DNA of 64,000 nt from Syntrophales bacterium. Its GTDB lineage: Bacteria > Desulfobacterota > Syntrophia > Syntrophales > UBA2210. The notes under the pieces were generated by a model, which saw nothing but the letters and a program-made list of their open reading frames with translations, was not told the DNA's origin and searched no databases. Both the position numbers and the translations under genes were made by a program. The stretch lies in NCBI GenBank assembly GCA_963666365.2, contig CAXXNF010000002.1, positions 1,216,001 through 1,280,000 on the forward strand, written 5' to 3'. Below are positions 11,672 to 33,923 of this stretch, in pieces; the stretch's first letter is position 1, and every line of letters starts with the position of its first letter.

Positions 11672-11780
11672 TAGAGTCCTTTGCTCACTGTCTATGCGTA
11701 AAATTCCCCCTCCCCTTCATCCCCTCCCACCAGGGGAGGGGAAAAGAGGGGGGAAACATCTTCATCTTCTGGTAAAAAGC

Positions 11781-11924: not shown

Positions 11925-11956
11925 AAAGCATCGTACCAACGAGGGGTGAGGCATCT

Positions 11957-13723: not shown

Positions 13724-13813
13724 GGTTTACCGACCACACAGTGTATCCGTTATTTTGATGCCTGCGTACAAAAATCATATTCCTTATGCGCCGTAATGCC
13801 CTTTCAAGGGAGT

Positions 13814-13965
13814 GAGACCTGGGTTGCAGAACCTCATCACATCGTCAATTTCGTTATACCGGCAGATCCCGGATCAAGTCCCGGGAGGTATCCATTTTTT
13901 TCACGCACTTTCTGGATTCCGGGTCAAGCCCGGAATGACAGAACAGGGTAGTATGCAAAGGCCTC
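13814..13965 (+). mobile_element. MITE copy 4
   Basis: Slightly diverged termini; target duplication GGAGT/GGAGT. Confidence 0.9.
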
Positions 13966-14007
13966 GGAGTATCTCGGCCAAGGCATTCTCATGACACATG
14001 ATATCAA

Positions 14008-14173
14008 GAGATTGCCGCGCTCCCTCCGGTCGCTCGCAATGACAGGCTTCGCGTCTTTGCGAGGTATGCAGCAACGAAGGAATCTCGCCGCTCCCGTTGT
14101 CATTTCGAGAAGCGACGAAGTAATCGCTACCTCCGCTTTGTCTTTGCGAAGAGCGCAGCGATGAAGCAATCTC
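14008..14173. repeat. Cluster of GAGATTGC...CGCAATGAC-type REP units in both orientations
   Basis: Starts GAGATTGC and ends GCAATCTC; internal GTC(A/T)TT(G/T)CGA...AATC units. Confidence 0.7.
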
Positions 14174-14212
14174 ATCGCACACCAACATTGCGAGTTTGCC
14201 GCAGCCCCCTAG

Positions 14213-14255
14213 CCCTTCCCACTTTTTCCACTTTTCCTACTTTCCTTACTTTCCT
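14213..14255. repeat. Degenerate 9-bp tandem array (ACTTTTCCT-like)
   Basis: About 5 units directly after the pilQ stop; similar array at 52201-52273. Confidence 0.7.
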
Positions 14256-15809: not shown

Positions 15810-15819
15810 GGAACCTCAT

Positions 15820-16332
15820 CTATTCTTCAACAAAGGGCACCGTAATCTTCCGCTGCCCTTCTTTGTCCTCGATAACCACCTCTGAGGGAGCAATGCCGAC
15901 AAGGGTATAACCCGGCAGTTCGAGCGCCTCGCCCACCCGGTAATCGACACCGTTGATAATCGCAAGCCGCACACCCCCCTCGTGGTCTATATAGCCGGTA
16001 TATTTCAGGTTCGGTCCCTCGTCTGCGGCTTTTTCTTTTTTCTCGTCCTTCGTGGAAGATCCCACATAAAAGGGATCACTCACCCACGCCTTTTGTGCAT
16101 TGTTCATAATATAGGCATCCAGTGACGATTGTTTGCTTTCCTTGAGCGCAACGGCCACGGTGGTTACCAGTGTATCGAGCTGGGTCATCTCCTGTGTTCG
16201 CGAAACCGCGGGTTTCTTCGCCGGTTTCGATTTTTGTGCCGAAGGCTCCAAAAAGAGGGCATACACGGCGTACAGTATCGCGACAGCCATAATCGCCAGG
16301 ATGATCTTTTCCCTCTTGCCTATTTTCTTCAT
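15820..16332 (-). CDS. PilP/GspB-like pilus alignment protein
   Basis: N-terminal TM, DPF motif and LAIINGVDYRVGE; lies between pilO and pilQ. Confidence 0.65.
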   Translation of the reverse strand: MKKIGKREKIILAIMAVAILYAVYALFLEPSAQKSKPAKKPAVSRTQEMTQLDTLVTTVAVALKESKQSSLDAYIMNNAQKAWVSDPFYVGSSTKDEKKEKAADEGPNLKYTGYIDHEGGVRLAIINGVDYRVGEALELPGYTLVGIAPSEVVIEDKEGQRKITVPFVEE

Positions 16333-16348
16333 TGCCCTACAATCCTTT

Positions 16349-16891
16349 TTATTCCACCGCCAGCCACAGTTTGATCGTGATTTCTTTTTCCTCGTCTCCG
16401 TTCTTGACCTGTATTTCTTCCACAGTCGTCAAATAGGGAATTTTGGCCACCCGGTACAGAAAATCCCGAAGGGACGGGAAGGGTCCCCTGATCACGGCGT
16501 CCGCTGAAATCAGGCCCGGATTCTCCTGCAACGCCGCCAGATCCGGTTTTACCGTTACCACCTTCAATCCCGCCGCTTCGGCGTGCGCCCTGATCACCGA
16601 AAGGATCGTATCTATCTGCGACTTCGGAAGCGTTGTCCTTGCCGAAACAATCAGCTCCTGCGGAAGCTCCGCTTTTTTCCTCGATGCAAGCTGCTGGTAA
16701 AGGGGCAGCAATTTATTCTGCTTTTCTATTTTGAACCGCAGGTCCTCGATGCGGCTTTCATAGCCATCCATCGATTTCAATGCCGGGTTAATCCATAGAA
16801 AGAAAAACGCCGCCAGCACCAGTGCGCTGAGCCCTCCAAGGATAACTATCCCGCTGCGCTCCTGAACTTTTAGTGTCGCTCCCTTTAGCAT
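16349..16891 (-). CDS. pilO: PilO-like protein
   Basis: TM + coiled coil + GPFPSLRDFL ferredoxin-like tail; operon position. Confidence 0.75.
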   Translation of the reverse strand: MLKGATLKVQERSGIVILGGLSALVLAAFFFLWINPALKSMDGYESRIEDLRFKIEKQNKLLPLYQQLASRKKAELPQELIVSARTTLPKSQIDTILSVIRAHAEAAGLKVVTVKPDLAALQENPGLISADAVIRGPFPSLRDFLYRVAKIPYLTTVEEIQVKNGDEEKEITIKLWLAVE

Positions 16892-16897
16892 GATTCC

Positions 16898-18823
16898 TCA
16901 ATTTAACGCTGCCGTTACCGTAAAGCGCAGCATGTCTCTTGCGCCTCTTTTCTCGGGCTTCTTTGTCTTGATGGAAGCCTTGTCGAAAAGGGGCGATGAC
17001 TGTAGTTTCACTATATAGGCGGCAAGGGTCGAATCCAATGTTTCTGATGCGCCTGACACCAGGCCCTCCATAACAAGCCCCTTCGCACCCTTGTCATCCT
17101 TTCCCCCGGCCTCTCCCCAATCAGCCTTGACACTGACAAGCCTGACCGGCTCGGGAGTAATCCTGGCGATCTCTCCGAAGGCAACAACTCCCACATACCG
17201 CTTTTTGATCTCCTGCATCGCCTCCTGCTCTTTTTTGACCTCCGAAATCATTCTGAGGATCATCGCTTCGTCCACCTGGACGTTCTGAGAGAGCTTTTTT
17301 TCCAGAGCGAAAGCCGATCGCTGTTTTTCATGGACGATGCCGTCGAGGTAAAGGTAATAGCCGAACACCGCCATCATGATCACAAGAAAACCGGCCATGA
17401 TGGACTTGTTCGCCCAATCCAGACGTTTTCTTTTCTCCTTGTCCTCGCTCGTATAAATAAGATTTAATGTCCGCGACATATCGGACAGCGCCACACCGAG
17501 CACAGGAACAAAAGCCGATCGTTCCGATATGTTGCTCGCCGACGTTACTCCACCCACGAACTGATGCGCTGGATCAAGCGGATCGAGCACATCACTGGCA
17601 ATGGCAAGCTGCCCGCCTATGTAATCCACGATGGGCAGATACACATCCATGGCCGTCGACACATAGACGGCGTTGACGCTCTCCCTGCCCATCGTTACCG
17701 AATAATGTTCAAAGGTGCGCTCCACCTGACGCACCAGCCGTTCCAGGGCCGGGTCTATCATATCGAAGACCCCGACTTTGTCCAGCCCGAATCGATCGTA
17801 AAGATCTTCCGCCGGCGGCGCATCCGGGCTGAGGGCGGCGATAAGCTCCCGTGCCTGATCGAGATCCATGGGCGTCTCATCATCGCGGGGCACGGCAACG
17901 ATTTCATTCTCCCTGTCTCCCGTCGGCACATCGAATATTGTCGACGGATTCTCGCCGAATGGGGGCATTTCTATGGTGGGCCTCTGGTTCGACCGCTGCC
18001 GACGCTTTTCTTCGTACTCATCCACCAGCGACTCCACCATGCTGTTGATCCCCGCCTTGATCCCCCGTGTCATCACAAGATTGCCCTTAGAAAAGATATC
18101 GATGCGCGACCAGCTTCTTCCGATATAAAGGGCCGCCACGGTTTTCTCAAAGGCCGGAATCCAGTTCGTACGGAAGAGGTTCTGCAGGGCAAGCGGTGCG
18201 ATCGTCAACCCGTCGAGCGGAAACCCTATCTTTTCAAAAAGCGCGCGCGTATCCTCGACTTCTTTTTTCGGCGTCGTGTAAAAGAGCACTCCGTACTTTT
18301 CTATCCCTTTTTCTATAACTTCGCCCTGCACCTCAAAATCGAAAACAACCTCTTCTTCATTAAAGGCACTTTCCTGCTTTGCCGTCCAGAGCACTACATT
18401 TCTCAGTTCCTTTCTTGCCACCTTTGGAACGCTTATGTTTTGCACCTCAACATTGGCCGCCGACATGAGGGCCCAGAGAGTGATACCCTTTGTCGAACCG
18501 CAGTAGTGTGACAGCTCCGCCTTAAGAAAATCTGCAAACTGCTGTGTGCCCCGTTCGATTCCCTTTTCCAGGGGAATGCGCGTGTAATCCAAAAGCATCC
18601 ACCCTTTGCCAGCCGTTTCGACAATCTTGACAAGGCGAAGCTGGGTGTAGCCGATGTCTATCCCGACAGATACTCCCTTCTGCCTGCCGACGCCGCGCTT
18701 TTTCCTTTCTTTCCTTTTCGACGCCTTTTGGGGAGTTTTTATACCGGGAAACTCATCCTCCTTGCCCCCCCGTATTACGTCGAGCAGTTTCTCCGTGGAG
18801 GTAATTTCCTTTTCCGTAGCCAC
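16898..18823 (-). CDS. pilM: PilM-PilN fusion protein
   Basis: VGIDIG actin-like PilM start; NLI motif, TM, coiled coil and LVMEG...LQSSPLF PilN-like tail in one 641-aa ORF. Confidence 0.8.
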   Translation of the reverse strand: MATEKEITSTEKLLDVIRGGKEDEFPGIKTPQKASKRKERKKRGVGRQKGVSVGIDIGYTQLRLVKIVETAGKGWMLLDYTRIPLEKGIERGTQQFADFLKAELSHYCGSTKGITLWALMSAANVEVQNISVPKVARKELRNVVLWTAKQESAFNEEEVVFDFEVQGEVIEKGIEKYGVLFYTTPKKEVEDTRALFEKIGFPLDGLTIAPLALQNLFRTNWIPAFEKTVAALYIGRSWSRIDIFSKGNLVMTRGIKAGINSMVESLVDEYEEKRRQRSNQRPTIEMPPFGENPSTIFDVPTGDRENEIVAVPRDDETPMDLDQARELIAALSPDAPPAEDLYDRFGLDKVGVFDMIDPALERLVRQVERTFEHYSVTMGRESVNAVYVSTAMDVYLPIVDYIGGQLAIASDVLDPLDPAHQFVGGVTSASNISERSAFVPVLGVALSDMSRTLNLIYTSEDKEKRKRLDWANKSIMAGFLVIMMAVFGYYLYLDGIVHEKQRSAFALEKKLSQNVQVDEAMILRMISEVKKEQEAMQEIKKRYVGVVAFGEIARITPEPVRLVSVKADWGEAGGKDDKGAKGLVMEGLVSGASETLDSTLAAYIVKLQSSPLFDKASIKTKKPEKRGARDMLRFTVTAALN

Positions 18824-21907: not shown

Positions 21908-21991
21908 AGCGTTTGGAGTGTTTGAAGCGTTTAGACAACAGCGATCTAAACGTTACTAACGATCTTAACAATTAAATAGGGAAGTGTCCCT
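21878..21991. repeat. Second inverted-repeat doublet of the same family, with 9-mer repeats in the spacer
   Basis: Perfect 20-bp arms at 21878-21897 and 21972-21991. Confidence 0.9.
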
Positions 21992-22145
21992 ATTTCCTAT
22001 TGACAGAACCCCCCCGAACATACTAGCTATTACGCCTGAAGGGGTGGTCGGAGGTATCGGTGGAGTTCCGCACAAAGGGCGCATTCACTGTATCCCCGCA
22101 AATCGACAGCGCAGTATCAAAACCAAAACACGAAAGGAAAAAATC

Positions 22146-23003
22146 ATGGAAATCAAGAAAATCTGTATTCTCGGCGCAGGTCAGATGGGAAGCGGCATTG
22201 CCCAGATATGCGCCCAGGCCGGGTATGAAGTGACAATGAGGGATATCGAACAGCGTTTCATTGACGGCGGCATCAACAACATAAAGAAAAACCTGGCGCG
22301 AAGTCTTGAAAAAGGCAAGATCACCCAGGAAGAAGCCGACGCAACCCTGTCACGCATCAGAGGCGTTCTCGACATGAAAGAAGCCGCCGGCGATGCCGAC
22401 GTGGTGGTGGAAGTGGTTCTCGAAATTCTGGAACTGAAGAAAAAAATATTCAGCGAACTCGAGGAAATCGTACCCGCCCACTGTCTCTTTTTCACCAATA
22501 CCTCGGGCCTCAGCATTACGGAAATGGCGGCGATGACCAAACGGCCGGAACGATTTATCGGCACGCACTTCTTCAGCCCCGTTCCAGTCATGCGTCTTCT
22601 TGAAATCATAAAGGGCTTCGAAACATCGGAAGAAACCCTCGAAATCGCAAAGGCATGGGGCAAAAAAATCGGTAAGGAAATAATAATTGTCAACGAGGCG
22701 CCCGCATTCGCCGTGAATCGGCTCCTTTGCACCATGCTCAACGAGGCATTTTATGCGCTTGCGGAAGGCGTGGCTACCGCGGAAGATCTCGATAAAGGAA
22801 TGGTGCTGGGCTGCAACCACCCGATCGGCCCGCTTGCCCTTTCCGACGCGGTAGGTCTCGATACCCTGCTCCATATCATGGAGGGCCTTCAGAAAGAGCT
22901 TGGCGATAAATACAAACCGGCACCTCTTTTACGGCAGCTTGTGCGTGCGGGACGTTACGGGAAGAAATCCGGCAAGGGCGTCTACGATTACGGCAAAAAA
23001 TAG
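22146..23003 (+). CDS. hbd: 3-hydroxybutyryl-CoA dehydrogenase
   Basis: [27 protein letters not shown] and HPIGPL motifs; AAAGGA RBS before ATG 22146. Confidence 0.95.
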
Positions 23004-23114
23004 TGGCGGCGGCGTAAAGACCTCATATGCGGGATCTTTTAATTGACAAAAGCCGCACATACCACCTATATGTAGCAACTGTCCTTCATTGAAATTGAGA
23101 GGAGAAAAAGCACC

Positions 23115-24254
23115 ATGGATTATGAATTGTCAGATGAAATGAAGATGTTGCAGGATATGGCGTACAAGTTTGCCCAGGCTGAAATAGCCCCTGTATCCCA
23201 TGAACATGATCACGAGGAAAAATATACGCCGGAAATAAGGAAAAAAGCAGCGGAAAACGGACTCGTCGGCGCCTGGATACCGGAGGAATACGGCGGCGCC
23301 GGCGTGGGCATACTGGGGAATACCCTCATCGTGGAGCAGATATCGCGCGTCGACATCGGCATAGGCCTGAATATCTACGCGGCATGCTTCGGCCTTGAAG
23401 CGGTCAACGAGTTTGGAAGCGAGGCGCAAAAGAAGACCTACATGCCACCGGTCTGTCAGGGTGAGCATGTCTGGGCCGGCGCCTATACGGAGCCGAACGC
23501 GGGCACCGACGTGGCAGGCTACAAAACGAGGGCCGTCAAGGATGGAAGCGATTACATCATCAACGGCCAGAAGATGTTCATCACCAATGGAACGGTATGC
23601 GATTACATGCTCTGCCAGTGCATCACCAACCCGGAAGAAAAGCGGCACCGTCAATTCAGCCAGATCATCGTGCCGTCAAACGCGCCCGGGGTCACGCGAA
23701 ACAAGATAAAGGGCAAGATGGGTATCCGGGCAAACGATACCGCCGACATATCCCTGGAGGACGTCCGCGTGCCCCAGGAAAATCTGGTTGGCCAGGAAGG
23801 CAGGGGCTTTTACCAGCTCATGACTTTCTTCGACATCACCAGAATCATGGTGGCCGGACAGGCCCTCGGTCTTTCCCAGGGGTGTCTTGATGAAGCGGTT
23901 AAATACGCCAAGGAACGAACCGCCTTCGGGCAGCCCATCGGGAACTTTCAGATTTCCATGCAGAAACTGACGGAAATGGCCATCAGAATCGAGGCGCTGC
24001 GAAATCTGATATACAAGGCGGCCTGGACCGTAGACGAGGGAAAGCCGGACTACACACTGGCGGCAATGGCAAAATATTATGGAGGACAGACGGCGGTATT
24101 CTGTGCCAATGCGGCGGTTGAAATCCACGGCGGCTACGGGTATATCGACGAGTACAAGGTCCAGAAATGGTATCGCGACGCAAAAATTTTAGAGCTCTAT
24201 GAAGGAACCAAGGAAGCCGAAGTCATGACCATCGGCAAGGTTCTTCAATCCTGA
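23115..24254 (+). CDS. Acyl-CoA dehydrogenase
   Basis: TEPNAGTD, NGQKMFITNG, IHGGYGY and LYEGTKE motifs. Confidence 0.95.
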   Translation: MDYELSDEMKMLQDMAYKFAQAEIAPVSHEHDHEEKYTPEIRKKAAENGLVGAWIPEEYGGAGVGILGNTLIVEQISRVDIGIGLNIYAACFGLEAVNEFGSEAQKKTYMPPVCQGEHVWAGAYTEPNAGTDVAGYKTRAVKDGSDYIINGQKMFITNGTVCDYMLCQCITNPEEKRHRQFSQIIVPSNAPGVTRNKIKGKMGIRANDTADISLEDVRVPQENLVGQEGRGFYQLMTFFDITRIMVAGQALGLSQGCLDEAVKYAKERTAFGQPIGNFQISMQKLTEMAIRIEALRNLIYKAAWTVDEGKPDYTLAAMAKYYGGQTAVFCANAAVEIHGGYGYIDEYKVQKWYRDAKILELYEGTKEAEVMTIGKVLQS

Positions 24255-24270
24255 GGTGTAAGGACATAGG

Positions 24271-24299
24271 ATGTCGCGGCTCCTCCCGGGCCGCGACAT
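24271..24299 (+). terminator. Hairpin after the acyl-CoA dehydrogenase gene
   Basis: 10-bp stem ATGTCGCGGC / GCCGCGACAT; weak U-tract. Confidence 0.55.
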
Positions 24300-24395
24300 G
24301 ATTTGCAAGGGGGCGCCCCGCTGAGAGGCATCATTGCAGACCGACCTCCCGAGAGGCGGATAAATAGTTACTTTAACATCCGGAGAGGAAACATT

Positions 24396-24680
24396 ATGGC
24401 CCTGACAAAAGCGGATATCGTGAGAACTCTTCACGCCGATTCCAATTTCTCAAAAGAGCGGTGTACCGAGTTGGTTGAAAGTGTATTTGATCTGGTTAAG
24501 GAAGAACTTGTCTCTGGAAGCCCGGTAATGATTTCCGGTTTTGGTAAGTGGTCGATTCGAGACAAAAACCCTCGCCGTGGGCGTGACCCGCAGACGGGCA
24601 TGGAACTTATGCTGAACTCTCGCAGGGTCGTCACGTTTAAATGCGCCCGCAAATTAAAGGAAAGCATCAATGCCGATTAG
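24396..24680 (+). CDS. ihfA: Integration host factor alpha-like subunit
   Basis: MALTKADIV, ISGFGKW, RRGRDPQTG and RRVVTFK motifs. Confidence 0.9.
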   Translation: MALTKADIVRTLHADSNFSKERCTELVESVFDLVKEELVSGSPVMISGFGKWSIRDKNPRRGRDPQTGMELMLNSRRVVTFKCARKLKESINAD

Positions 24681-24781: not shown

Positions 24782-26878
24782 TTGGGTGTGAACAAAGAAG
24801 CGCTGTTGCGTGACGCATCAGGCATTGCAGAGGCGGACCGTGGAATAGCGCACCGGATTCCTGATTGGCTGTTTCATCACCAGTGCCTGATGGAGAGCAT
24901 CGATACTTCGCACAGGGTGGCACAGAGCAAAGTAATCAACTCTCTCAACCATGCACACTTCACAGGCGCGCCGGCCTATGTCTATTTGAAACATCGCCTT
25001 TATGGAGACGGCATAATCGTGGCCACACGTCCTGATCCCTGTGCCGGTGAAAGAGTGACCTGCCGCTGGGTTGATCGGGAAGCGTCTTCTCTTTCACTTG
25101 ATCAGTATACCTTCGAACATCTTGTGATCATCGGCGAAGGGGCGCCCGTTATTATTCCCGGGGAAGTGGAAGCATTGAACGGCACAAGTCTTACCCTGAA
25201 ACTGCCAGACATAAGTTATACCATCGAACACCGCCGGACAATGCGCCATGCCTGCGGCGGCATCAAGGCCCATATCCTGCAGAGGGGGTTTTCCGCGTCG
25301 GGCGCACTGGTTGATTTCAGTGCGGCAAGCTTTCGGGTCCGCCTCGAAATGGAAGGAATGCTCCCCATCGCCTGGTTCAACAGGGATGCGCCCGCCACCG
25401 TAAGTCTGATAAAGGGAGATCGCATGCTCTTTTCCGGACCCTGCACCTGCACCAGGCAGTCAACGGACAGCATGGATCCGGAACTTGTCTTCAGTCCCGC
25501 CGAGCAGTCAATCACCCGTTTTGGGAACAAGACAATACGCAACCCGCGCCGGGAGATTGAACCGAAAGTACAGGCCGTGTTTGTACATCCCTTTTTCAAG
25601 AAGCAGTACACCCTGGGAATAGGCGATCTTTCCAATTCCGGATTTTCTGTTTTGGAGCGTGCCGCTGATTCGGTTCTCGCTGTCGGACTTATTATTCCTC
25701 GACTGTCACTCAATTTTAGCGGCGCCTTTACGATACACTGCATGGCGCAGGTCATCTACCGCCGGGAGATCGAAGAGGGGAAAATTCGATGCGGCCTTGC
25801 CATACTGGACATGGACCTGCACGACTTCAGCACGCTGAATCAGATTCTCAATTATTCCCAGGATTCAGGATCATTCGTCTCAAACACCGTCGATATGGAT
25901 GCCCTCTGGGAGTTTTTTTTCGACACCGGGTTCATTTACCCACAGAAGTACCGGCATATCTTCTCAAATATCGCCGATTTCAAAGAGATATACCGGAAGC
26001 TTTATCAGGAACACCCCGAAATCGCGAGACATTTTACCTATGAAAAAGAGGGAAAAATTCATGCCCACCTTTCCATGGTGCGTGCCTTCGAACGCACCTG
26101 GCTTATGCAGCACCATGCGGCCCGCCACAGCGAAAGCCGACTCGCAGGGTTTCAGGTGTTGAAGCAGACCGTACTGTTCCTGACTGGCCTGAGCCGTCTT
26201 CCTTCAGGATATATGGACTATGTCATGTGTTATTACCGCCCGGAAAACAGATTTCCCGACCGCCTTTTCGGCGGCTTCGCCCGGGAGGCGGAATCGCCGC
26301 GTGTGTCGTCGCTGGATCTCTTCGCCTATTTTTCTATCCCTGAAGACATCGCCGCCCCTGAACTGCCCGCGGACTGCAAGCTGCACGAAATCACCCCCCT
26401 GGAGATCTGGGAATTCGAACGGTTTTACAACCACCATTCGGGTGGTTTGCTGATCGAGGTGCTCGATCTCGGCTGCAGAAGCCGCAAGAACGGCGAATCC
26501 CTTGAAGACACATCCCGTCGCTTCGGCTTCGAGAGAACCTGGACGACCTATGCACTCCTCCGCCGCGGAGCGCTTACGGCGGTATTTGTGGTAAACCGTT
26601 CGAGTTTCGGCGTCAACCTCTCTCATCTCCTGAACAGCCTTACGGTATTTGTAATGAATGAGGAATTGCCCGGCGACATCATTCACAGTGCTGCCCACAC
26701 CCTTTCCAGAGCATTAAACCTTGACAACGCGCCCCTGCTTGTATATCCATCGGATTATGTGATTCATCACGATATTCCCTGTGAGAAATGCTATCAACTC
26801 TGGATTCTGGATATGAAACGTCATGCATACGATTTCATGAAATATACCCAGGACAGATTTCGTATGAGGTATCGCTGA
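24782..26878 (+). CDS. Large protein with two PilZ-like domains and a GNAT-like C-terminal half
   Basis: RRTMRH...DFSAASF and RNPRR...DLSNSGF PilZ signatures; C-terminal pattern resembles an acyltransferase fold; start uncertain. Confidence 0.7.
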   Translation: MGVNKEALLRDASGIAEADRGIAHRIPDWLFHHQCLMESIDTSHRVAQSKVINSLNHAHFTGAPAYVYLKHRLYGDGIIVATRPDPCAGERVTCRWVDREASSLSLDQYTFEHLVIIGEGAPVIIPGEVEALNGTSLTLKLPDISYTIEHRRTMRHACGGIKAHILQRGFSASGALVDFSAASFRVRLEMEGMLPIAWFNRDAPATVSLIKGDRMLFSGPCTCTRQSTDSMDPELVFSPAEQSITRFGNKTIRNPRREIEPKVQAVFVHPFFKKQYTLGIGDLSNSGFSVLERAADSVLAVGLIIPRLSLNFSGAFTIHCMAQVIYRREIEEGKIRCGLAILDMDLHDFSTLNQILNYSQDSGSFVSNTVDMDALWEFFFDTGFIYPQKYRHIFSNIADFKEIYRKLYQEHPEIARHFTYEKEGKIHAHLSMVRAFERTWLMQHHAARHSESRLAGFQVLKQTVLFLTGLSRLPSGYMDYVMCYYRPENRFPDRLFGGFAREAESPRVSSLDLFAYFSIPEDIAAPELPADCKLHEITPLEIWEFERFYNHHSGGLLIEVLDLGCRSRKNGESLEDTSRRFGFERTWTTYALLRRGALTAVFVVNRSSFGVNLSHLLNSLTVFVMNEELPGDIIHSAAHTLSRALNLDNAPLLVYPSDYVIHHDIPCEKCYQLWILDMKRHAYDFMKYTQDRFRMRYR

Positions 26879-26893
26879 CAACGTGCACACATC

Positions 26894-29806
26894 ATGAAAC
26901 ATCTTCCTCTCTACAGCACCCGAATCATCAGACACTACCTCGAGTATGTGGCGCTCCACTATCCTGAGATCGAGATCAATTCGCTCATCGAAGGTGCAGA
27001 CATCACGCCCTTCCAGTTGGAAGACGACGGTCACTGGCTGACCCAGGATCAGGTGGATCGTTTTCACAAGAAACTTGCCGAGCTGACACAGGACCCCAAT
27101 CTGCCCCGCGAGGCGGGGAGGACCTTTGCACCATCAAAATCTTCCGGCGTGTTGTCTCAATATGCCCTTGGCTTCATCACGCCCGGCACCGCCTATGCCA
27201 TGCTGGACAAGCTTTTCAGTCGCGTGACCAGGGCGCATGAGATGACGATTAAATACCTCGCGCCAAACAGCATTAAAGTAATCGTTACCCCCAAAGTCGG
27301 GGTTGAAGAAAAGCCCTACCAATGCGAAAACCGTTTCGGAACCTTTGAGTCGATAGCCAGTCTCTTCACCGGCAAGCTGGCCCAGGTCGAACACCCGACC
27401 TGTATCCACCGCGGCGACGAGGCCTGCACCTATATCATATCCTGGGAGCAGCCCAGATCCTTTGTCTGGAAACGCATCCGCAACTACGGGTCTCTTGTGG
27501 GGGTGAGCCTTTTCCTGGCATCGCTTTTTATACTGCCTCACGGGTATGTGCTGGTCTTTCTGCTGGCGATGGCGCTCCTTATCACCGCCGTATTTCTCTA
27601 CACGGAAAAACTGGAGAAACAGGAAATCAGCACCGTTCTGAAAAATCAGAGCATCCTTGCGGAGGATCTGCTCGATCAGATCAATGTCAGTTATGAAAAT
27701 TCACTGCTCGTTCAGGAGATCGGTCAGGCCGCCTCTGAAATCCTCAACGGCGAAAAAATTCTCGAACATATTACCGGCATAATGTCGAAGCGCCTCAGGT
27801 TTAAACGGGGGATTATTTTTCTCGCCGACAAGGACGGAAACAACCTCGCCTATACCGCTTCCTACGGATTCAGCCCTGAATTGTTGAAGTACCTGCAGTC
27901 AATAACATTTTATTTGGGAAATCCCGCCTCGAAGGGAGAAGTCGTCCGGGCCTTTCGGGAACAAAAGCCCTTTATGGTGAACGACACCGATCAAATCAGG
28001 CAGTATCTCTCTAAACGGACAAGGGAATTCGTGGACAAACTGGGAATCAACTCATTTATCTGCGTGCCCATCATCTATGAAGGCAGGTCCCTGGGCGTCC
28101 TTGCCGTTGATGCGCCGCGATTCGGAAAATCGCCCAACCAGAGCGATGTCAATCTCATCATGGGGATTGCCACGCAGATTGGATCTAGCCTCAACAGCGT
28201 CCGGTTCTATCAGGAGATCAGAGAACGCGAGGCGCTTTTCAGAAATCTCAGTGAAAGCATCCCCGACATTATTGTGACCGTGGCCATGAACGGGGGAATC
28301 ACCTACGTAAATCCCGCCGTCGCAAAGGTGCTGGGATATGCACCGAAGGATGTCATCGGCGCCAATGTGATGGACTTTGTAAAAGAGGGTTCCCGTGCGG
28401 ACTACCTCCTGCTGATGAAACGCATACACGATTCGAAAGATACGGTAAAAAATTTTAAGGGAACGCTTATCAGAAAAGACGGTGCGGAGAGGCTCTTTGA
28501 TATAAATTGCGTGCCCAATCTCAATAGCGACGGCGCCATAAAGGGACTGGTGGCAAACCTGAAAGACATTACAGAACAGCACTCCCTGGAAGCCCAGCTT
28601 CATCATGCATCGAAAATGGAGGCCATCGGCACGTTGACCGGGGGCATATCCCACGACTTCAACAACATACTTCAGGCACTGCGCGGCTACACCCAGCTGC
28701 TCCTCACACACAGACCGCAATCCGACCGTGACCGGCATTATCTCGTCAGTATCGATGAAATGATCGAACGGGCCACAAACCTCACCCGTCAGCTTCTTCT
28801 TTTCAGCCGTAAAGTGGAAAGCAAATTTTCGCCCTTCGACTTCAATCAGGAAATAAAAAAATGTTTCGACATTCTTTCACAAACGATCACCAGGATGATC
28901 ACCATTGAATTGAAACTCTCCGACGATCTTGGCATCGTCAACGGTGACGCCACGCAGATGGGCCAGATCATCATGAATCTCGCCCTGAATGCACGGGATG
29001 CCATGCCTGAAGGTGGTCGTCTTGCCATCACTACGGAAAACGTACAGATCGATGAGACGCAGATTATTGATGATGTCACTATAGACAGAGGCAAATACGT
29101 CAGAATCACCGTCTCAGACACGGGCACGGGCATGACGCAGGAGGTCAGGGAACGCATATTCGAGCCCTTCTTTACCACCAAGGACGGAAAGGGGACCGGT
29201 TTGGGCCTTCCCGTTGTATACGGCATTGTCACAAACCATGGCGGGACCATCGCCTGCCACAGCGAACCCGACAGTGGATCGACCTTCACCGTCTATCTTC
29301 CCCGCATAGACGCCCCCCGTGATGAAAACGCGGTCATCGTAAAGGCGGCTGCACCGGCGCCTGCCCTGAACGGCAGTGAAACTGTCCTGATCGTCGATGA
29401 CGAAGAAATGCTTCTCGAAACGGGAGAAGCCATCCTGGACCAATACGGATATACCACCTGCACGGCGCGCAGCGGCGAAGAAGCCCTCGAATACTTCGCG
29501 CTTCACAAAGATGCCATCGATCTTATACTGCTGGACCTGATTATGCCGGGCATGGGGGGACAGAAATGTCTCGAAGGTCTACTGAAAATCGACCCTTCCG
29601 TTCCTGTCGTCATTACAAGCGGGTACACGGCCGGCATCGACGCGCAGGAAATCCTGCAAAACGGCGCGACGGGGTTTATCAACAAGCCCTATCAGGTCAC
29701 TACGCTTATTCAGGAAATCAGAACGATTCTTGACTGTTCGACAAGAAATAAAGACGCCCCTGCAAAACGTCTACAAACATCCTCTCCCTTGAGGGAAGAG
29801 GATTGA
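26894..29806 (+). CDS. Hybrid histidine kinase (V4R-like sensor, 2 TM, GAF, PAS, HisKA, HATPase, REC)
   Basis: QCENRFG...HPTCIHRGDEACTY (V4R-like); SHDFNN, NLALNARDAM, GTGLGL, LIVDDE and DLIMPGMGG motifs. Confidence 0.92.
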   Translation: MKHLPLYSTRIIRHYLEYVALHYPEIEINSLIEGADITPFQLEDDGHWLTQDQVDRFHKKLAELTQDPNLPREAGRTFAPSKSSGVLSQYALGFITPGTAYAMLDKLFSRVTRAHEMTIKYLAPNSIKVIVTPKVGVEEKPYQCENRFGTFESIASLFTGKLAQVEHPTCIHRGDEACTYIISWEQPRSFVWKRIRNYGSLVGVSLFLASLFILPHGYVLVFLLAMALLITAVFLYTEKLEKQEISTVLKNQSILAEDLLDQINVSYENSLLVQEIGQAASEILNGEKILEHITGIMSKRLRFKRGIIFLADKDGNNLAYTASYGFSPELLKYLQSITFYLGNPASKGEVVRAFREQKPFMVNDTDQIRQYLSKRTREFVDKLGINSFICVPIIYEGRSLGVLAVDAPRFGKSPNQSDVNLIMGIATQIGSSLNSVRFYQEIREREALFRNLSESIPDIIVTVAMNGGITYVNPAVAKVLGYAPKDVIGANVMDFVKEGSRADYLLLMKRIHDSKDTVKNFKGTLIRKDGAERLFDINCVPNLNSDGAIKGLVANLKDITEQHSLEAQLHHASKMEAIGTLTGGISHDFNNILQALRGYTQLLLTHRPQSDRDRHYLVSIDEMIERATNLTRQLLLFSRKVESKFSPFDFNQEIKKCFDILSQTITRMITIELKLSDDLGIVNGDATQMGQIIMNLALNARDAMPEGGRLAITTENVQIDETQIIDDVTIDRGKYVRITVSDTGTGMTQEVRERIFEPFFTTKDGKGTGLGLPVVYGIVTNHGGTIACHSEPDSGSTFTVYLPRIDAPRDENAVIVKAAAPAPALNGSETVLIVDDEEMLLETGEAILDQYGYTTCTARSGEEALEYFALHKDAIDLILLDLIMPGMGGQKCLEGLLKIDPSVPVVITSGYTAGIDAQEILQNGATGFINKPYQVTTLIQEIRTILDCSTRNKDAPAKRLQTSSPLREED

Positions 29807-29807
29807 G

Positions 29808-30935
29808 GTGAGGAATCCTATCATGCCTGAAGAAATTACACGCTGCCGCAGGTGCATACTGCCTTCATCCTATCCCGGCATCGATTTCGACGCCGACGGC
29901 GTCTGCACCTTTTGTCGGGCGGCCCCTTCCCCCGACACAATACAGCCCGCCGCCCATCGGAAAACACAACTCAATGCAATTATTAATGCGTACAGGGGAA
30001 AGGGAGCGTATGACGTCATCGTCGGTCTGAGCGGCGGGAAAGACAGCAGTTATGTTGCCTGGTATCTTCACAATGAATACCATCTTCGCATCCTGGGGAT
30101 TAATTTTGATAACGGGTACCGCTCGGAATATGCCCTGAAAAATATTGCCGTGCTGTCCGATACACTGGGGATAGACGTCGTCACCATCGGACCGAACCTG
30201 AAGTTTCTCAAAAAAATGTATGCCCATTTTCTGCGCCGAAGAGGGGAATTCTGTTCCGTCTGCAATAATATGGGCTATCTTCTTGTGGCAAGTTTCTGCC
30301 GTCGGGAACAGCGGCTGCACGGGGTGTCTCCGCTTGCCGTCGGAGGATGGTCGAAGCGCTACGAGTTTCAGCCGGGCGTGTCGGTCACCTCAATGCAGTA
30401 TTTTTTCGAAACGCTCACCCCTTCCCTCTTCGAGGAACTCATGGCACAACCGTTCATCGAGGAGGCCGTGGTGGAGCGCTATCGCAGGCTTCACGATCCG
30501 CGGCAGGCACAGCTTGACACCACCGGCGGCTCGGAGAAGAACGCCGCCGCAATGGACATGATACAGCTTCCCGACTATATCCAATGGAACATGAAGGATA
30601 TTCCCGATTTTCTTGAGCAGACGCTTGGATGGCGCCGTCCGCCCGACATCCATGCAAGCCACTTCGACTGCACCGTTTTCCCCATCAAAGGATTCCTGAA
30701 GTATCGAAAATTCGGCCTCAGTCAGGAAACCATAAAGAACAGCGTAATGATCCGCGAAGGCGCTATGTCCAGAGAGGAGGCGCTGGCGCGTTGCTCCCTT
30801 GACCAGAGAGATGAGCCGTCAGTATACCGGGGATTTCTCGCGGACCTGGGACTTGCGCCGGAAGACGTCAGCGACGATGCCGAGTGGTCGTCAGGACAGC
30901 GGGAACATGAAAATAGAAACCATCACCATATTTAA
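29808..30935 (+). CDS. PP-loop ATPase, N-acetyl-sugar amidotransferase-like
   Basis: CRRCILP...GVCTFC, LSGGKDSS, FCSVC, HFDC and IREGAMSREEAL motifs. Confidence 0.8.
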   Translation: MRNPIMPEEITRCRRCILPSSYPGIDFDADGVCTFCRAAPSPDTIQPAAHRKTQLNAIINAYRGKGAYDVIVGLSGGKDSSYVAWYLHNEYHLRILGINFDNGYRSEYALKNIAVLSDTLGIDVVTIGPNLKFLKKMYAHFLRRRGEFCSVCNNMGYLLVASFCRREQRLHGVSPLAVGGWSKRYEFQPGVSVTSMQYFFETLTPSLFEELMAQPFIEEAVVERYRRLHDPRQAQLDTTGGSEKNAAAMDMIQLPDYIQWNMKDIPDFLEQTLGWRRPPDIHASHFDCTVFPIKGFLKYRKFGLSQETIKNSVMIREGAMSREEALARCSLDQRDEPSVYRGFLADLGLAPEDVSDDAEWSSGQREHENRNHHHI

Positions 30936-32073
30936 ATGTGAACGCCCCTTTTCACGCGCATTCGCTTCATCGAAACGCAAGCGGACACGGGCTGAAGCGA
31001 TCGTGCTGAAAATCGACTGCGAAAGAGGACTCTTCGGTTACGGTGAATGCACGCCCCGCCCATATGTGACGGGGGAACGCATCGAGTCGGTCTTCGCCGT
31101 CATTCGCACTATCATGGCTGAACAGCTTCTTGGTGAATCCTTTTCTTCGCTCCCGGACATCGCCATGGTTCTGGAGGGACTCTCGCGCACCTGTGAGACC
31201 CGTTATGGCCGTCCCGTCAACTCTGCACTCTGCGCCGTTGAGCTGGCGCTCATCGATGCGCTGGGAAAGCAGTGCAATGCACCGGCACAGAACCTTCTCG
31301 GTCCCGCACTGCGGGAACAGCTTCCCTACGCGCTGTCGATTCCTCTTTTATCCCTGCCCACGCTTCGAAACCTCTTGCCGCTACTGGACACCGTCCCCTT
31401 TTCATCGCTCAAGATTGTTGCCGGCATCGACAGGAACGATACGTTGAACCGTCTTCGCTTCGTCCGTGACGAATACGGATTTGGCGGAGATGTCACCCTT
31501 GAGGCCAACGGCGCCTGGACAGCCGATGAAGCACTCGTCATACTGGATCAGGCCGTTCCATTCGGCATAGCAGGGGTCGAGCAGCCCACGGAAAAGGACG
31601 ATCTGAAGGGCATGCAGAGGGTAAAGTGGGAAACGGGAATCCCCCTTATCGCAGACGAGTCGATGTGCAGCCTTTCCGAAGCGCGAAGGTTGATCGAAGA
31701 GCAGGCATGCGATATCATCAACATCAAAATCTCAAAATGCGGGGGGCTTCTTCAATCGATGGCAATCGCCCGTTATGCCCATGCAGCGGGGATACCCTGT
31801 CAGATCGGCGCCCATGTGGGGGAAACGGAAATCCTCTCATCGGCGGGAAGAGCGCTGGCACGCACCGTACCCGAGATCCTCAGATATGATGGATTCTCCT
31901 CTCTGCTTTTCGATCATCACGGCGGACATGCCCGCAATACCGACTGCAACGCACCGCACAGCGGAAGGGACATGGCCGGGCTCGGCATGGACGTTCAGGA
32001 CAGGTATCTTGTAAAACTCTGGTCTTCCGACGGCGCTACCAGACAAGTTCGACCCGCGCCAGCACACTTGTAA
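30907..32073 (+). CDS. Enolase-superfamily protein (muconate cycloisomerase/dipeptide epimerase subgroup)
   Basis: GYGECTPRPYVTGE, EANGAW, EQP, ADES, NIKISKCGG and GAHVGET motifs. Confidence 0.85.
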   Translation: MKIETITIFKCERPFSRAFASSKRKRTRAEAIVLKIDCERGLFGYGECTPRPYVTGERIESVFAVIRTIMAEQLLGESFSSLPDIAMVLEGLSRTCETRYGRPVNSALCAVELALIDALGKQCNAPAQNLLGPALREQLPYALSIPLLSLPTLRNLLPLLDTVPFSSLKIVAGIDRNDTLNRLRFVRDEYGFGGDVTLEANGAWTADEALVILDQAVPFGIAGVEQPTEKDDLKGMQRVKWETGIPLIADESMCSLSEARRLIEEQACDIINIKISKCGGLLQSMAIARYAHAAGIPCQIGAHVGETEILSSAGRALARTVPEILRYDGFSSLLFDHHGGHARNTDCNAPHSGRDMAGLGMDVQDRYLVKLWSSDGATRQVRPAPAHL

Positions 32074-32626
32074 AAACGAGCGTGGCATCGCCCGTCCCCG
32101 CCACAGACGCTGGTGAAAAAGCAAGACGGTAGGCCTTCCCGTAGGAGGGCTGCACGTAGGGGTAGAAGTGCACCATGAGGGGGGACACTTCCCTTATTTC
32201 CCTCACCTCGCGCGGTTCGTGACGATTCCCCTTCCCGTCGATAAGAAAAATTTTCCATATGGAACCGTAGTGAGCAAAGGTGTTCGCCTCTCTGTCGGGA
32301 GTATAGGCATAAAAGAGAAATTCCGTCGCGTCCGAGTGAGCGGCATCTTGCCGCGCCCTGCGTTCCGACGCCGACAGATCATAAAACCGTGCATATTCCG
32401 TCCAGTAGGCATCATTGAATTCCCGGTGTTTCCATGTAGCAACTATTTTGACCCTTGTTTCAAATTCGGAATATGCAGTCTTCTCCCGCGTCCACTTGTC
32501 GAGCGCCCTGCGGTAGTCCTTTGAAAGCGTCACAGGGCGGACGATATCGACATACTCGCCGAGTGCGGCGCATCCGCACAACAGACACGCGCACAGAAGG
32601 ATCAGCGCCGGCTTACACTTTCTCAT
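32036..32626 (-). CDS. Hypothetical lipoprotein
   Basis: MRKCKPALILLCACLLCGC lipobox; GGAGGA RBS; overlaps the end of purB. Confidence 0.75.
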   Translation of the reverse strand: MRKCKPALILLCACLLCGCAALGEYVDIVRPVTLSKDYRRALDKWTREKTAYSEFETRVKIVATWKHREFNDAYWTEYARFYDLSASERRARQDAAHSDATEFLFYAYTPDREANTFAHYGSIWKIFLIDGKGNRHEPREVREIREVSPLMVHFYPYVQPSYGKAYRLAFSPASVAGTGDATLVFTSVLARVELVW

Positions 32627-33923
32627 CGCGTCCTCCGAATACCCGGTCAAAAACGGTATCAAGATGGGGCAAAAAGTGTTCCGTCTTGAAGGCATCCTCG
32701 ATGTCGTTCTCGGTAAGACGGGACGCCACATCGGGATCTTTCAGAAGCAGATCCTTGAATTCGACTTCTTCGCTCCAGGATTTCATGGCGTTCCTCTGGA
32801 CAATCGCATAGGCATCCTCGCGGGAGATTCCGCATTCGATCAGCTTCAGCAGCACCATCTGGGAAAAGACCAATCCATGGGTCATATTCAGATTTCGGAT
32901 CATCCGGTCGGGATAGACCACAAGTCTGTCCACCATGCCGATACAGCGGTTCAGCATAAAATCGAGCAGAATCGTCGCATCGGGCCCGATCACTCGTTCG
33001 ACGGAAGAATGACTGATATCGCGCTCATGCCACAGCGCCACATCCTCAAGCGCTGCCAGGGCATAGGCTCTCATGAGCCTCGCCAGGCCCGTCAGATTTT
33101 CCGACAACACGGGATTCCGCTTATGGGGCATTGCCGACGACCCCTTCTGGCCCGGTGAAAAATATTCTTCCGCTTCCCTCACCTCCGTTCTCTGAAGATG
33201 ACGGATTTCGATGGCGAATTTCTCTATGGAAGCCGCGCAGATGGCCAATGCGGAAAAATACTCGGCATGACGGTCTCTCTGCACGATCTGCGTGGAAATG
33301 GGAGCGGGCTTCAATCCCAGTTTCTCGCAGACGTATGCCTCTACGGCAGGATCGACAAGGGAGAATGTTCCCACGGCGCCGGCAATTTTGCCGTAGCTGA
33401 TGGTCTCTTGTGCGCGAAGGAGGCGCTGACGATTCCGTTCCATCTCCTGGAACCAGAGCGCCATTTTCAGACCGAAGGTCACCGGTTCCGCATGGATGCC
33501 GTGGGAACGGCCGATCATCAGGGTATCTTTATGCTGAAAGGCCTTTTCCCTGAGACTTGCGAGCAGTCGATCCACATCGGCAATGATCAGTTCGATTGCC
33601 TCTTTCAGAAGCACCGCCAGCGACGTGTCAAGCACATCGGAGGAGGTCAGCCCCATGTGGATAAACCGGGCATCTTCCCCCACCTTTTCGGATACTGAGG
33701 TCAAAAAGGCGATGACATCGTGTTTTACGGTTTTTTCGATTTCATCGATTCTTGAAATGTCAAAGGCCGCTTTCTCTTTTATATTCTGAAGCGCCGACCG
33801 GGGAATTTTCCCCTCCAACGCCAATGCTTCGCAGGCCAGGATCTCCACATCCAGCCATTTTTGGAACCTGTTTTCCGGACTCCAGATAGAGACCATTTCT
33901 TCCCGTGAATATCTTGGAATCAA
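32613..33923 (-). CDS. purB: Adenylosuccinate lyase
   Basis: MIPRY, HDVIAF, GRSHGIHAEP and GSSAMPHKRNP motifs. Confidence 0.97.
   Translation of the reverse strand: MIPRYSREEMVSIWSPENRFQKWLDVEILACEALALEGKIPRSALQNIKEKAAFDISRIDEIEKTVKHDVIAFLTSVSEKVGEDARFIHMGLTSSDVLDTSLAVLLKEAIELIIADVDRLLASLREKAFQHKDTLMIGRSHGIHAEPVTFGLKMALWFQEMERNRQRLLRAQETISYGKIAGAVGTFSLVDPAVEAYVCEKLGLKPAPISTQIVQRDRHAEYFSALAICAASIEKFAIEIRHLQRTEVREAEEYFSPGQKGSSAMPHKRNPVLSENLTGLARLMRAYALAALEDVALWHERDISHSSVERVIGPDATILLDFMLNRCIGMVDRLVVYPDRMIRNLNMTHGLVFSQMVLLKLIECGISREDAYAIVQRNAMKSWSEEVEFKDLLLKDPDVASRLTENDIEDAFKTEHFLPHLDTVFDRVFGGRDEKV

Follow-up and report, generated by a model that had tools for sequence, protein, structure and literature searches.

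The DNA analyzed here is a 64,000-nucleotide (nt) stretch of contig CAXXNF010000002.1 of a Syntrophales bacterium (the window, to which all coordinates refer), and our subject is a set of four open reading frames (ORFs) in it, genes 1–4, all of them on the + strand. The conserved unit is the pair formed by genes 1 and 2, a two-gene signaling module, and not a four-gene pathway. Gene 1 encodes a PilZ protein with a tandem GNAT fold predicted in its C-terminal half, and gene 2 encodes a sensor joined to a hybrid histidine kinase. In our opinion, gene 1 may be an acyltransferase gated by cyclic di-guanosine monophosphate (c-di-GMP) that acts on or through its sensor partner; we favor this reading tentatively and put it somewhat below an even chance.

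The first line of evidence is structural. An earlier note on this DNA had seen GNAT-like strands in the C-terminus of gene 1, and structure prediction bore this out and added that the fold is present in tandem. A full-length model of gene 1 built from 24 sequences had a predicted local distance difference test (pLDDT) value of 61 overall, with a poor C-terminal half. The model of residues 362–698 (m027491caf0df; 337 residues, 133 diverse sequences) reached a pLDDT of 94.6 and a predicted template modeling (pTM) score of 0.92, and Foldseek comparison of this confident model with the PDB placed tandem GNATs on top, VipF (6wqc) being the best match (E = 7.6e-10). Further matches included 2wpw (a tandem GNAT of the clavulanate pathway), 5kf1 (a glucosamine N-acetyltransferase), 7q3a, MAB_4324, Eis, and N-myristoyltransferase. 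All 50 listed entries had the GNAT fold, both among the re-ranked Foldseek matches and in a Foldseek-independent search, and the tandem-GNAT matches covered residues 1–323 of the model. The strands quoted in the earlier note are β2–β5 of the first GNAT domain. As modeled, the GNAT fold occurs twice in the C-terminal half of gene 1. Look-ups in the ESM Atlas gave weak leads only (unnamed clusters, and Acetyltransf_1/9 at scores of 0.85–0.86), and the module lies outside every GNAT sequence family searched.

Residue conservation was counted in an alignment of 127 diverse members of the gene 1 family. The GNAT half is the best-conserved part of the protein, and its invariant polar residues cluster on β3, β4, β6, and the start of α4. 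In GNAT-1, W440 is present in all 127 sequences, H444 in 126, H429 in 124, and G456, S510, and D512 in 118 each; K389 and Y390 are also nearly invariant. In GNAT-2, the corresponding counts are 118 for N612, 121 for S614, and 126 for Y671. The β4-α3 loop of GNATs carries the pyrophosphate-binding motif A (Q/R-x-x-G-x-G/A), and GNAT-1 has R453-x-x-G456 in this loop, which is R/K-x-x-G across the family. Because H429, H444, K389, Y390, S510, D512, N612, S614, and Y671 are nearly invariant, an active site fits this half of the protein better than a scaffold does. The conservation pattern looks like that of an active enzyme in which a single domain binds the donor. Donor binding and catalysis probably fall to GNAT-1, and acceptor binding or regulation probably to GNAT-2. 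It should also be noted that β4 of GNAT-1 contains a His-His-His run (window 26105–26119, residues 442–446), in which H443 is found in 102 and H445 in 92 of the 127 sequences. Together with H429 on β3, this run, which is unusual for GNATs, might form a metal site or a catalytic cluster.

The same data bear on the possibility that gene 1 is a catalytically dead adaptor, with its tandem GNAT serving as a scaffold or as an acyl-CoA sensor. The precedent for it is HapZ of Pseudomonas aeruginosa, a PilZ adaptor that, according to the preprint, binds the receiver of the hybrid kinase SagS at high c-di-GMP (bioRxiv 10.1101/2020.02.11.943704). There, as proposed for gene 1, a c-di-GMP-binding PilZ protein modulates a hybrid histidine kinase; however, HapZ as described there is a single-domain, receiver-binding protein, whereas gene 1 carries a putative enzyme module and has a conserved link to the sensor end of its partner. 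A dead adaptor would be in keeping with the incomplete motif A, with the lack of a Gly motif in the β4-α3 loop of GNAT-2, and with the failure of sequence searches to recognize any GNAT family in this half. It agrees poorly with the clustering of invariant polar residues in the most conserved half of the protein, and also with the fact that the pairing described below follows the sensor end and not the receiver, which partners of the HD-GYP and cyclase types lack. We consider this explanation very unlikely.

The N-terminal half of gene 1, judging from its motifs, most likely binds c-di-GMP. The two RxxxR...DxSxx(G/S) PilZ signatures reported in the earlier note are indeed there (R151/R155...S183 and R253/R257...G287). 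Pfam detected PilZ (PF07238) at residues 255–356 only, with 24.2 bits (gathering cut-off 22.5), and did not call PilZ-1; an NCBIfam scan of gene 1 gave no match. By Foldseek, about 210 columns of this half aligned to two-barrel c-di-GMP receptors, namely YcgR (5y6f; the best match, E = 2.7e-8), MrkH, PlzA, and MotI. In PilZ-1, R151 is conserved in 118, R155 in 119, D178 in 96, and S180 in 79 of the 127 family members; in PilZ-2, R253 is conserved in 123, R256 in 122, D282 in 96, S284 in 112, and G287 in 122. YcgR, MotI, MrkH, and PlzA (PilZN-PilZ proteins) have in common with gene 1 the pair of β-barrels, the RxxxR motif, and the DxSxxG-type motif. These proteins, however, are adaptors or transcription factors of about 220–250 residues devoid of an enzyme domain, whereas gene 1 seemingly contains three barrels and a 337-residue tandem GNAT.

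Proteins of the gene 1 type form a large, uniform, and uncharacterized family, with a length of about 700 residues. Among the candidates scored, 1155 homologs were found at E ≤ 1e-3; in clusters of 50% identity, there were 845 representatives at E ≤ 1e-3 and 272 at E ≤ 1e-30. Where names are given, they are only "hypothetical" or "PilZ domain-containing", and PF07238 was found in 96 of 120 homologs among the matches listed. Most members are labeled Syntrophales, Smithella, or Desulfobacterales. Two homologs (loci L017 and L048) lie on short contigs labeled Thermoprotei archaeon and Pseudomonadota bacterium, which may be binning errors. The full-text literature searches that were made, exclusive of supplementary files, yielded no description of this family or of its pairing with the sensor.

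In gene 2, Pfam recognized GAF (residues 287–433), PAS (448–561), HisKA (579–640), HATPase_c (684–804), and Response_reg (831–942). The phospho-acceptor His (SHDFNN) and the receiver Asp (LLDLIMPG) are present, and the protein is a hybrid histidine kinase. The N-terminal domain (N-domain), scanned alone, matched Arabinose_bd (PF12625) with 29.7 bits (cut-off 27.6) and V4R (PF02830) with 22.6 bits, below the cut-off of 31. A search of the single N-terminal sequence against solved structures gave nothing useful. In 44 aligned partner N-domains, V4R was detected in 39 and Arabinose_bd in 31 (E ≤ 0.1), and the N-domain profile matched the Shewanella H-NOX structure 4u9b (E = 0.0028), over only 43 residues, those of the H..C.H.G...C stretch. 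C144, C170, and H172 are invariant in this alignment, and C178 and H167 are nearly so. Given these V4R, Arabinose_bd, and H-NOX matches and the conserved Cys and His residues, the Cys-containing V4R-like kinase N-terminus described in the earlier note is a reasonable assignment.

The likeness of the N-domain to H-NOX, V4R, and Arabinose_bd domains thus includes the C-terminal Cys/His motif, and differences are also evident. As read by eye, its consensus has no His at the usual position of the proximal heme ligand and no YxSxR. Unlike the H-NOX and V4R comparators, the domain is fused at the N-terminus to a transmembrane hairpin, GAF, and PAS. The N-domain is predicted to be cytoplasmic, and it is the element that defines the partner of gene 1.

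The second line of evidence is the conservation of the pairing itself. In a scan of one genome per species, 238 relatives were found, and the best 80 loci were examined. Where at least 3 kb lay downstream of the gene 1 homolog (52 loci), a gene 2 homolog was present on the same strand within 2.5 kb in 46; in 42, the partner starts within 600 nt of gene 1 and has the N-terminal sensor domain. Many partner starts (those of the longest ORFs) overlap or abut the gene 1 stop, which suggests translational coupling. In an even sample of the phylum (301 genomes, i.e., 300 besides the window's own, from 201 genera), gene 1 was found in 34 genomes of 23 genera and the sensor N-domain in 37 genomes, and when the two tables are tallied, both occur together in 29. 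In 14 of these 29 genomes, the matches stand on one strand at most 300 nt apart, and in another 6 they are within about 5 kb of each other. Gene 1 occurs alone in five genomes, with the match at a contig end in two of them; the N-domain occurs alone in eight, four of these matches being weak (E of about 1e-10 to 1e-12). These co-occurrence counts are not independent, because the sampled genomes are related to each other.

The strong conservation of genes 1 and 2 as a pair (46 of 52 loci, 29 of 34 gene-1-positive genomes) therefore stands, whereas a conserved operon of four genes, as the earlier note had supposed, does not. Among the loci examined, all four genes in the order of the window were found only in L046 besides the window; L029 also has genes 3 and 4, but at a distance of about 7.5 kb and on the opposite strand. 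In the 44 loci with at least 6.5 kb downstream, a gene 4 homolog was present in 10 and a gene 3 homolog in 2. Other recurrent neighbors are a convergent S-adenosylmethionine (SAM) methyltransferase gene downstream of the partner (30 loci), an HDOD protein gene (14 loci), and a B12-radical-SAM protein gene (13 loci). The methyltransferase and the HDOD protein were matched neither in the window nor in the LpxL-type loci described below, and the radical-SAM protein was matched once, in L091; with next to no matches there, these genes were not counted as parts of the module. Some loci show irregularities: L073 has a second, partial copy of gene 1 (326 residues) directly 5′ of an HD-GYP-type partner, the partner N-domain contains stop codons in L064 and L016, and the partner is in pieces in L028.

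The third line of evidence is the exchange of partner outputs behind a constant sensor. According to Pfam scans and a domain census, the part of the partner that is kept across loci comprises the N-domain, the hydrophobic hairpin, GAF, and usually PAS. The first partner downstream of gene 1 (n = 54 loci) is a histidine kinase in 35, mostly with a receiver, an HD-GYP protein in 9, and a class III nucleotide cyclase in 5; the remaining 5 are cut by a contig end or broken. Three loci have a second partner of another type, and in five loci (L014, L016, L047, L055, and L064), the longest kinases, some of them with Hpt, are followed by a response regulator with a receiver and an HD-GYP domain (REC-HD-GYP). 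A maximum-likelihood tree of 48 gene 1 sequences (a quick search, with rows shorter than 600 residues left out) calls for at least 4 changes of the output label, of which strongly supported branches force at least 3. Since the sensor is kept while the outputs are swapped, the functional tie to gene 1 runs via the sensor end of the partner and not via its output.

Four fusion proteins of interest occur among the 150 listed cluster representatives. Protein P0196 consists of a complete gene 1 followed by a HisKA-HATPase core, 37% identical to residues 562–806 of gene 2. P0247 joins residues 1–506 of gene 1 to a hydrophobic (transmembrane) segment, a GAF domain 34% identical to that of gene 2, and HisKA. 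In P0149 and P0179, NERD and a Ser/Thr kinase precede a full gene 1. The fusions, if real, put gene 1 at the input end of kinases and speak for control at the protein level.

The partner types invite a different order of events, in which the sensor comes first and gene 1 last: the partner would set local c-di-GMP, either through HD-GYP or by a phosphorelay to REC-HD-GYP, and gene 1 would be a downstream effector whose target lies elsewhere and has no relation to the sensor. The conserved PilZ arginines, the HD-GYP outputs in 9 loci, and the REC-HD-GYP regulators after the kinase in 5 agree with such an order. Co-encoded pairs of a phosphodiesterase and an effector are a known pattern of local c-di-GMP signaling. 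The cyclase-type partners (5 loci), however, have no action on c-di-GMP, the majority of partners are hybrid kinases that lack an HD-GYP regulator in the vicinity, and the conserved sensor end and the fusions of gene 1 to a kinase core are left unexplained. A precedent can be found in Caulobacter HfsK, described as a c-di-GMP-controlled effector of the N-acetyltransferase family that modifies polysaccharide (PMC5362036); unlike gene 1, HfsK as described has no PilZ domain. On balance, we regard the sensor-first order as improbable.

The reading that we favor, in which gene 1 acts on or through the sensor, may be outlined as follows. Gene 1 would be a cytoplasmic protein whose YcgR-like PilZ-type barrels in the N-terminal half bind c-di-GMP and whose C-terminal half is a tandem-GNAT acyltransferase. 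Gene 2 would be a membrane-anchored sensor composed of a cytoplasmic V4R/H-NOX-like Cys/His domain, a transmembrane hairpin, GAF (or GAF-PAS), and an interchangeable output. By acylation or by contact, gene 1 would act directly on this partner and would thereby report the state of c-di-GMP, and perhaps that of the acyl donor, to a sensor that detects a small ligand of its own as well. The kinase would pass on the combined signal, a role that would fall in other species to an HD-GYP phosphodiesterase or a nucleotide cyclase. Direct action on the partner is favored because the genes are tightly coupled, because gene 1 occurs fused to kinase cores, and because the link stays with the sensor end as the outputs change. 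A role for c-di-GMP accords with the REC-HD-GYP regulators that follow the longer kinases in five loci and with the c-di-GMP enzymes of the window's own genome (4 GGDEF and 5 HD-GYP-type matches), and PixB, discussed below, provides a precedent. We observed the folds, the motifs, and the pairing; we infer that c-di-GMP is bound, that acyl groups are transferred, and which way the signal flows. A complex prediction for full-length gene 1 with residues 1–196 of gene 2, run without controls, scored 0.00 and has no bearing either way.

Several observations weigh against this reading. The GNAT half (residues 362–698) matched no Pfam family at E ≤ 1 and none of NCBIfam, and the gene 1 family profile found no match among PDB sequences. 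Motif A of GNAT-1 is partial, its second G/A not being conserved; for this reason, acyl-CoA binding is not assured, and another donor is possible. In the PilZ half, most members have RxxR in PilZ-2, with mainly Q at position 257 (the window sequence owes its RxxxR to R257), and the final position of DxSxxG in PilZ-1 is more often S or A than G. As to the pairing, 6 of the 52 loci have no partner nearby, and gene 1 and the sensor N-domain are on different contigs in 9 of the 29 genomes with both. The fusion proteins are predicted from metagenomes and may be artefacts of assembly or gene calling, and the cyclase-type partners have no obvious link to c-di-GMP. To our knowledge, no biochemical fact has been established for any member of the gene 1 family. 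Finally, variable outputs behind a conserved ligand-type sensor fit equally well a synthase that makes the ligand of the sensor.

Gene 4 belongs to the enolase superfamily (Pfam MR_MLE_N, E = 1.8e-12; MR_MLE_C, E = 9e-37) and is atypical, both as had been stated in the earlier note. Its nearest solved structures are 2p88 (E = 3.5e-39), which we take to be an N-succinyl-Arg/Lys racemase, and the L-Ala-D/L-Glu epimerase YkfB (1jpm). With these two members of the MLE subgroup and with N-acylamino-acid racemase (1sja), gene 4 has in common the fold, the Glu and Asp metal ligands, and the β6 Lys, which is kept in gene 4 (NIKISKCGG) and in 10 of 10 orthologs of the type with about 377–430 residues. 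In contrast to that subgroup, the KxK motif, which belongs at the end of strand 2, reads K-I-V in gene 4 and K-x-[VIL] in 10 of 10 orthologs, and the first metal ligand is Glu, not Asp, in gene 4 and Glu in 7 of 10 orthologs. A two-base racemase mechanism is unlikely for gene 4, since the second Lys of KxK is replaced in all 10 orthologs.

A gene 4 homolog (E ≤ 1e-45) was found in 2 of the 34 gene-1-positive genomes, G000 and G210, and in G210 it stands directly after the kinase gene. Gene 4 is a recurrent, lineage-specific accessory of the module formed by genes 1 and 2. Near the gene 1–sensor pair of three other loci lies a gene for a 696-residue fusion of an enolase-superfamily domain with an α/β-hydrolase (L006:15177–17267, L049:14928–17018, L038:14585–16672 (− strand)). 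In these three loci, the fusion, which has an intact KxK, stands in place of the gene 4 type.

Gene-4-like genes are also present in 18 other genomes that lack gene 1, and 19 such loci (among L087–L106) were examined. A gene of the LpxL/lipid A acyltransferase family lies upstream of the enolase-superfamily gene and overlaps it in 18 of the 19; PF03279 was confirmed by Pfam in four scanned loci, and the other LpxL-like genes were identified by tblastn. A sensor gene adjoins in 12 of the 19 loci; six others sit on short contigs, and L104 lacks both the acyltransferase and the sensor. The N-domain of these sensors is a distant paralog of that of gene 2 (hhalign, 95% and 93%, over about 180 columns), with the Cys motif kept, and their outputs vary as well, comprising HisKA_3 kinases, a hybrid kinase, and GAF-HD-GYP. 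Neighboring genes encode a patatin, a FadL/TodX outer-membrane channel, an α/β-hydrolase, and a CDP-alcohol phosphatidyltransferase. The enolase subfamily linked to LpxL keeps KxK and has Arg in place of the β6 Lys, the reverse of the gene 4 pattern, so that the two subfamilies, as their alignments indicate, have lost opposite catalytic lysines. The LpxL-type loci thus show that the combination of a sensor of this type, an acyltransferase, and a one-lysine enzyme of the enolase superfamily recurs in two paralogous versions, which differ in their acyltransferases.

The idea of signal synthesis and sensing, which the earlier note had put forward for all four genes, can be restated in the light of these data. 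A c-di-GMP-gated tandem GNAT would make an N-acylated small molecule or lipid, gene 4, where present, would modify it, and the V4R/H-NOX-like domain would bind the product; the sensor would then set a phosphorelay, c-di-GMP hydrolysis, or synthesis of cyclic nucleoside monophosphates (cNMPs), possibly in a feedback loop. A sensor that is kept while its output is swapped is what would be expected of a synthase-receptor pair, and the families to which the N-domain is related (V4R, Arabinose_bd, and H-NOX) are known to bind small ligands. The parallel module of an LpxL-like protein and an enolase in 18 genomes without gene 1, its paralogous sensor in 12 of 19 loci, its lipid-related neighbors, and the enolase-hydrolase fusion in three gene 1 loci point the same way. 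Furthermore, enzymes of the MLE subgroup include N-acyl- and N-succinyl-amino-acid racemases that work with GNAT acyltransferases. On the other side, gene 4 can hardly be required, let alone essential, since 32 of the 34 gene-1-positive genomes in the sample lack it, gene 3 scarcely occurs outside this lineage, and no export or uptake gene is conserved beside gene 1 in the loci examined. In addition, a cytoplasmic location is predicted for the sensor domain, there is no known product, and the fusion of P0196 to a kinase core that has no sensor domain points to protein-level control and not to a free ligand. We regard signal synthesis, the main rival of the reading favored above, as rather unlikely. 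What stands of the proposal in the earlier note is an acyltransferase coupled to a ligand-type sensor, for which the kept sensor with swapped outputs and the LpxL-type module provide some comparative support; genes 3 and 4 are not part of the core.

A broader formulation would cover both kinds of loci as an as yet undescribed class of circuits in Thermodesulfobacteriota. In such a circuit, an acyltransferase (a c-di-GMP-gated tandem GNAT here, an LpxL-like protein with a one-lysine enolase elsewhere) would make a lipid-like or N-acyl compound, and a dedicated V4R/H-NOX-like membrane sensor would read this compound and convert it into a phosphorelay, c-di-GMP hydrolysis, or cNMP synthesis. We consider this formulation unlikely; if it is true, such a circuit would tie an acyl signal and a second messenger together in a closed loop.

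Gene 3 is linked to the module weakly and is a rare add-on, close to private to this lineage. It has an SGGKDS PP-loop and an N-terminal, zinc-ribbon-like CxxC...CxxC, and it matched TIGR03573 (WbuX) with 181.8 bits over 326 residues, below the curated cut-off of 203.2. The genomic context of WbuX is a polysaccharide cluster with HisH/HisF-like partners; no HisH/HisF, glycosyltransferase, or polysaccharide families were found among the ORFs scanned across the window. The description in the earlier note, a PP-loop, amidotransferase-like enzyme with no HisH/HisF or polysaccharide genes nearby, is thus accurate. Gene 3 has the PP-loop in common with WbuX and differs from it in this context and in its score below the cut-off. 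Among the loci examined, orthologs (58–59% identity) were present only in L046 and L029. No close ortholog was found in the 300 other genomes of the phylum, where the best match was 35% identical and on a contig different from that of the gene 1 match of the same genome. The idea that genes 3 and 4 form an independent cassette was rejected: the five best gene-3-like loci elsewhere have no gene-4-like neighbor within 1.5 kb.

By architecture, the closest characterized protein is PixB (MXAN_2604) of Myxococcus xanthus, a protein with two PilZ domains, a GNAT domain, and the ability to bind c-di-GMP in vitro (PMC8316039). According to that report, the acetyltransferase domain is required for function, the protein exerts its effect upstream of the Frz kinase pathway, and no substrate is known for it (PMC8316039). 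The order PilZ-PilZ-GNAT is common to PixB and gene 1, a likeness of architecture. The GNAT of PixB, however, is an ordinary, single, recognized domain, whereas that of gene 1 is tandem and undetected by Pfam; the RxxxR motifs are about 210 residues apart in PixB (R121, R331) and about 100 in gene 1 (R151, R253); and no V4R/GAF sensor partner of PixB is reported. The solved tandem GNATs (histidine N-acetyltransferase 9emd, VipF 6wqc/7wx7, 2wpw, 5kf1, Eis, and N-myristoyltransferase) are 6–14% identical to gene 1. They have no PilZ module, and gene 1 differs further in its partial motif A and its conserved His cluster (H429, H443–445). Gene 1 is distinguished from PixB, HfsK, and HapZ, as far as these are described, by a tandem GNAT invisible to profiles and by a dedicated V4R/GAF sensor with a swappable output.

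The module is of interest for several reasons. Enzymatic effectors of c-di-GMP are few, and PixB, the only PilZ-GNAT protein that has been studied, is still without a known substrate. The gene 1 family is large (845 cluster representatives; about one in nine of the phylum genomes sampled), and its strict pairing with one sensor module suggests in concrete terms what an enzyme of this kind may act on or supply. The host groups are syntrophic and sulfate-reducing anaerobes, whose signaling is almost unstudied. If gene 1 acylates proteins, it would represent a new route for c-di-GMP into two-component, HD-GYP, and cyclase signaling; if it makes an acyl signal, the pair would be a new type of signal and receptor.

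The coordinates of the four genes and of the domains of genes 1 and 2 are listed in Table 1. The genes are co-directional and as tightly coupled as the earlier note had it: the gaps are 15 nt (genes 1 and 2) and 1 nt (genes 2 and 3), and with the start of gene 4 placed at ATG 30907 (MKIETITIF), genes 3 and 4 overlap by 29 nt. When the locus was scanned with promoter and terminator consensus sequences, sites were no more numerous than in shuffled sequence.

Table 1. Positions of genes 1–4 and of the domains assigned to genes 1 and 2 (window coordinates)
Feature	Position	Strand	Description
Gene 1	24782..26878	+	698 aa; PilZN-like barrel, PilZ-1, PilZ-2, GNAT-1, GNAT-2
N-terminal PilZN-like β-barrel	24899..25222	+	Gene 1 residues ~40–147; pLDDT ~80 in full-length model
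PilZ-1	25229..25501	+	Gene 1 residues ~150–240; R151-RTM-R155, D178-FSAAS183
PilZ-2	25538..25855	+	Gene 1 residues ~253–358; R253-NPR-R257, R256, D282-LSNSG287
GNAT-1 (predicted)	25865..26341	+	Gene 1 residues ~362–520; His cluster on β3/β4, partial motif A in β4-α3 loop
GNAT-2 (predicted)	26369..26875	+	Gene 1 residues ~530–698; no Gly motif in β4-α3 loop; G-x-N-L-S insert β3/β4
Gene 2	26894..29806	+	970 aa; sensor and hybrid histidine kinase
V4R/H-NOX-like (Pfam Arabinose_bd) sensor domain	26894..27481	+	Gene 2 residues 1–196; C144, C170, H172, C178
Hydrophobic hairpin, probably transmembrane	27485..27601	+	Gene 2 residues ~198–236; two stretches, read by eye: YGSLVGVSLFLASLFILPHGYVLVFLLAMALLITAVFLY
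Gene 3	29808..30935	+	375 aa; PP-loop ATP pyrophosphatase, WbuX (N-acetyl sugar amidotransferase) type
Gene 4	30907..32073 (ORF from 30799)	+	388 aa from ATG; enolase superfamily, MLE subgroup

The genes 5′ of gene 1 encode a PolX-type polymerase, a 3-hydroxyacyl-CoA dehydrogenase, an acyl-CoA dehydrogenase, and an HU-like protein. The two dehydrogenase genes and the HU gene (window 21984–24680) are syntenic in L005, L050, L066, and L069, with identity of up to 82%, and an enoyl-CoA hydratase gene lies upstream of gene 1 in 22 other loci. On the 3′ side of gene 4 are purB, on the opposite strand, and then nrdD and nrdG. About 540 nt (window 32074–32612) separate gene 4 from purB; the sole ORF in this interval (32036–32731, − strand, 231 residues) is probably not a gene, since it has no Pfam match and overlaps purB.

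Elsewhere in the window, positions 7040–18823 (− strand) are occupied by a cluster resembling those of type IV pili and type II secretion. It encodes PilM, PilO, a secretin, an AAA_22 ATPase, a T2SSE ATPase with an MshEN domain, which we presume to be c-di-GMP-binding, T2SSF, and a sigma-54 activator. A DDE transposase gene (DUF772 and DDE_Tnp_1) with an adjoining helix-turn-helix ORF is found at 799–2794 (− strand), and the G+C content is lower (0.43–0.48) across the first 6 kb of the window. Positions 58652–60616 (+ strand) encode an acetyl-CoA hydrolase/transferase to which an ordinary GNAT domain (Acetyltransf_1) is fused at the C-terminus.

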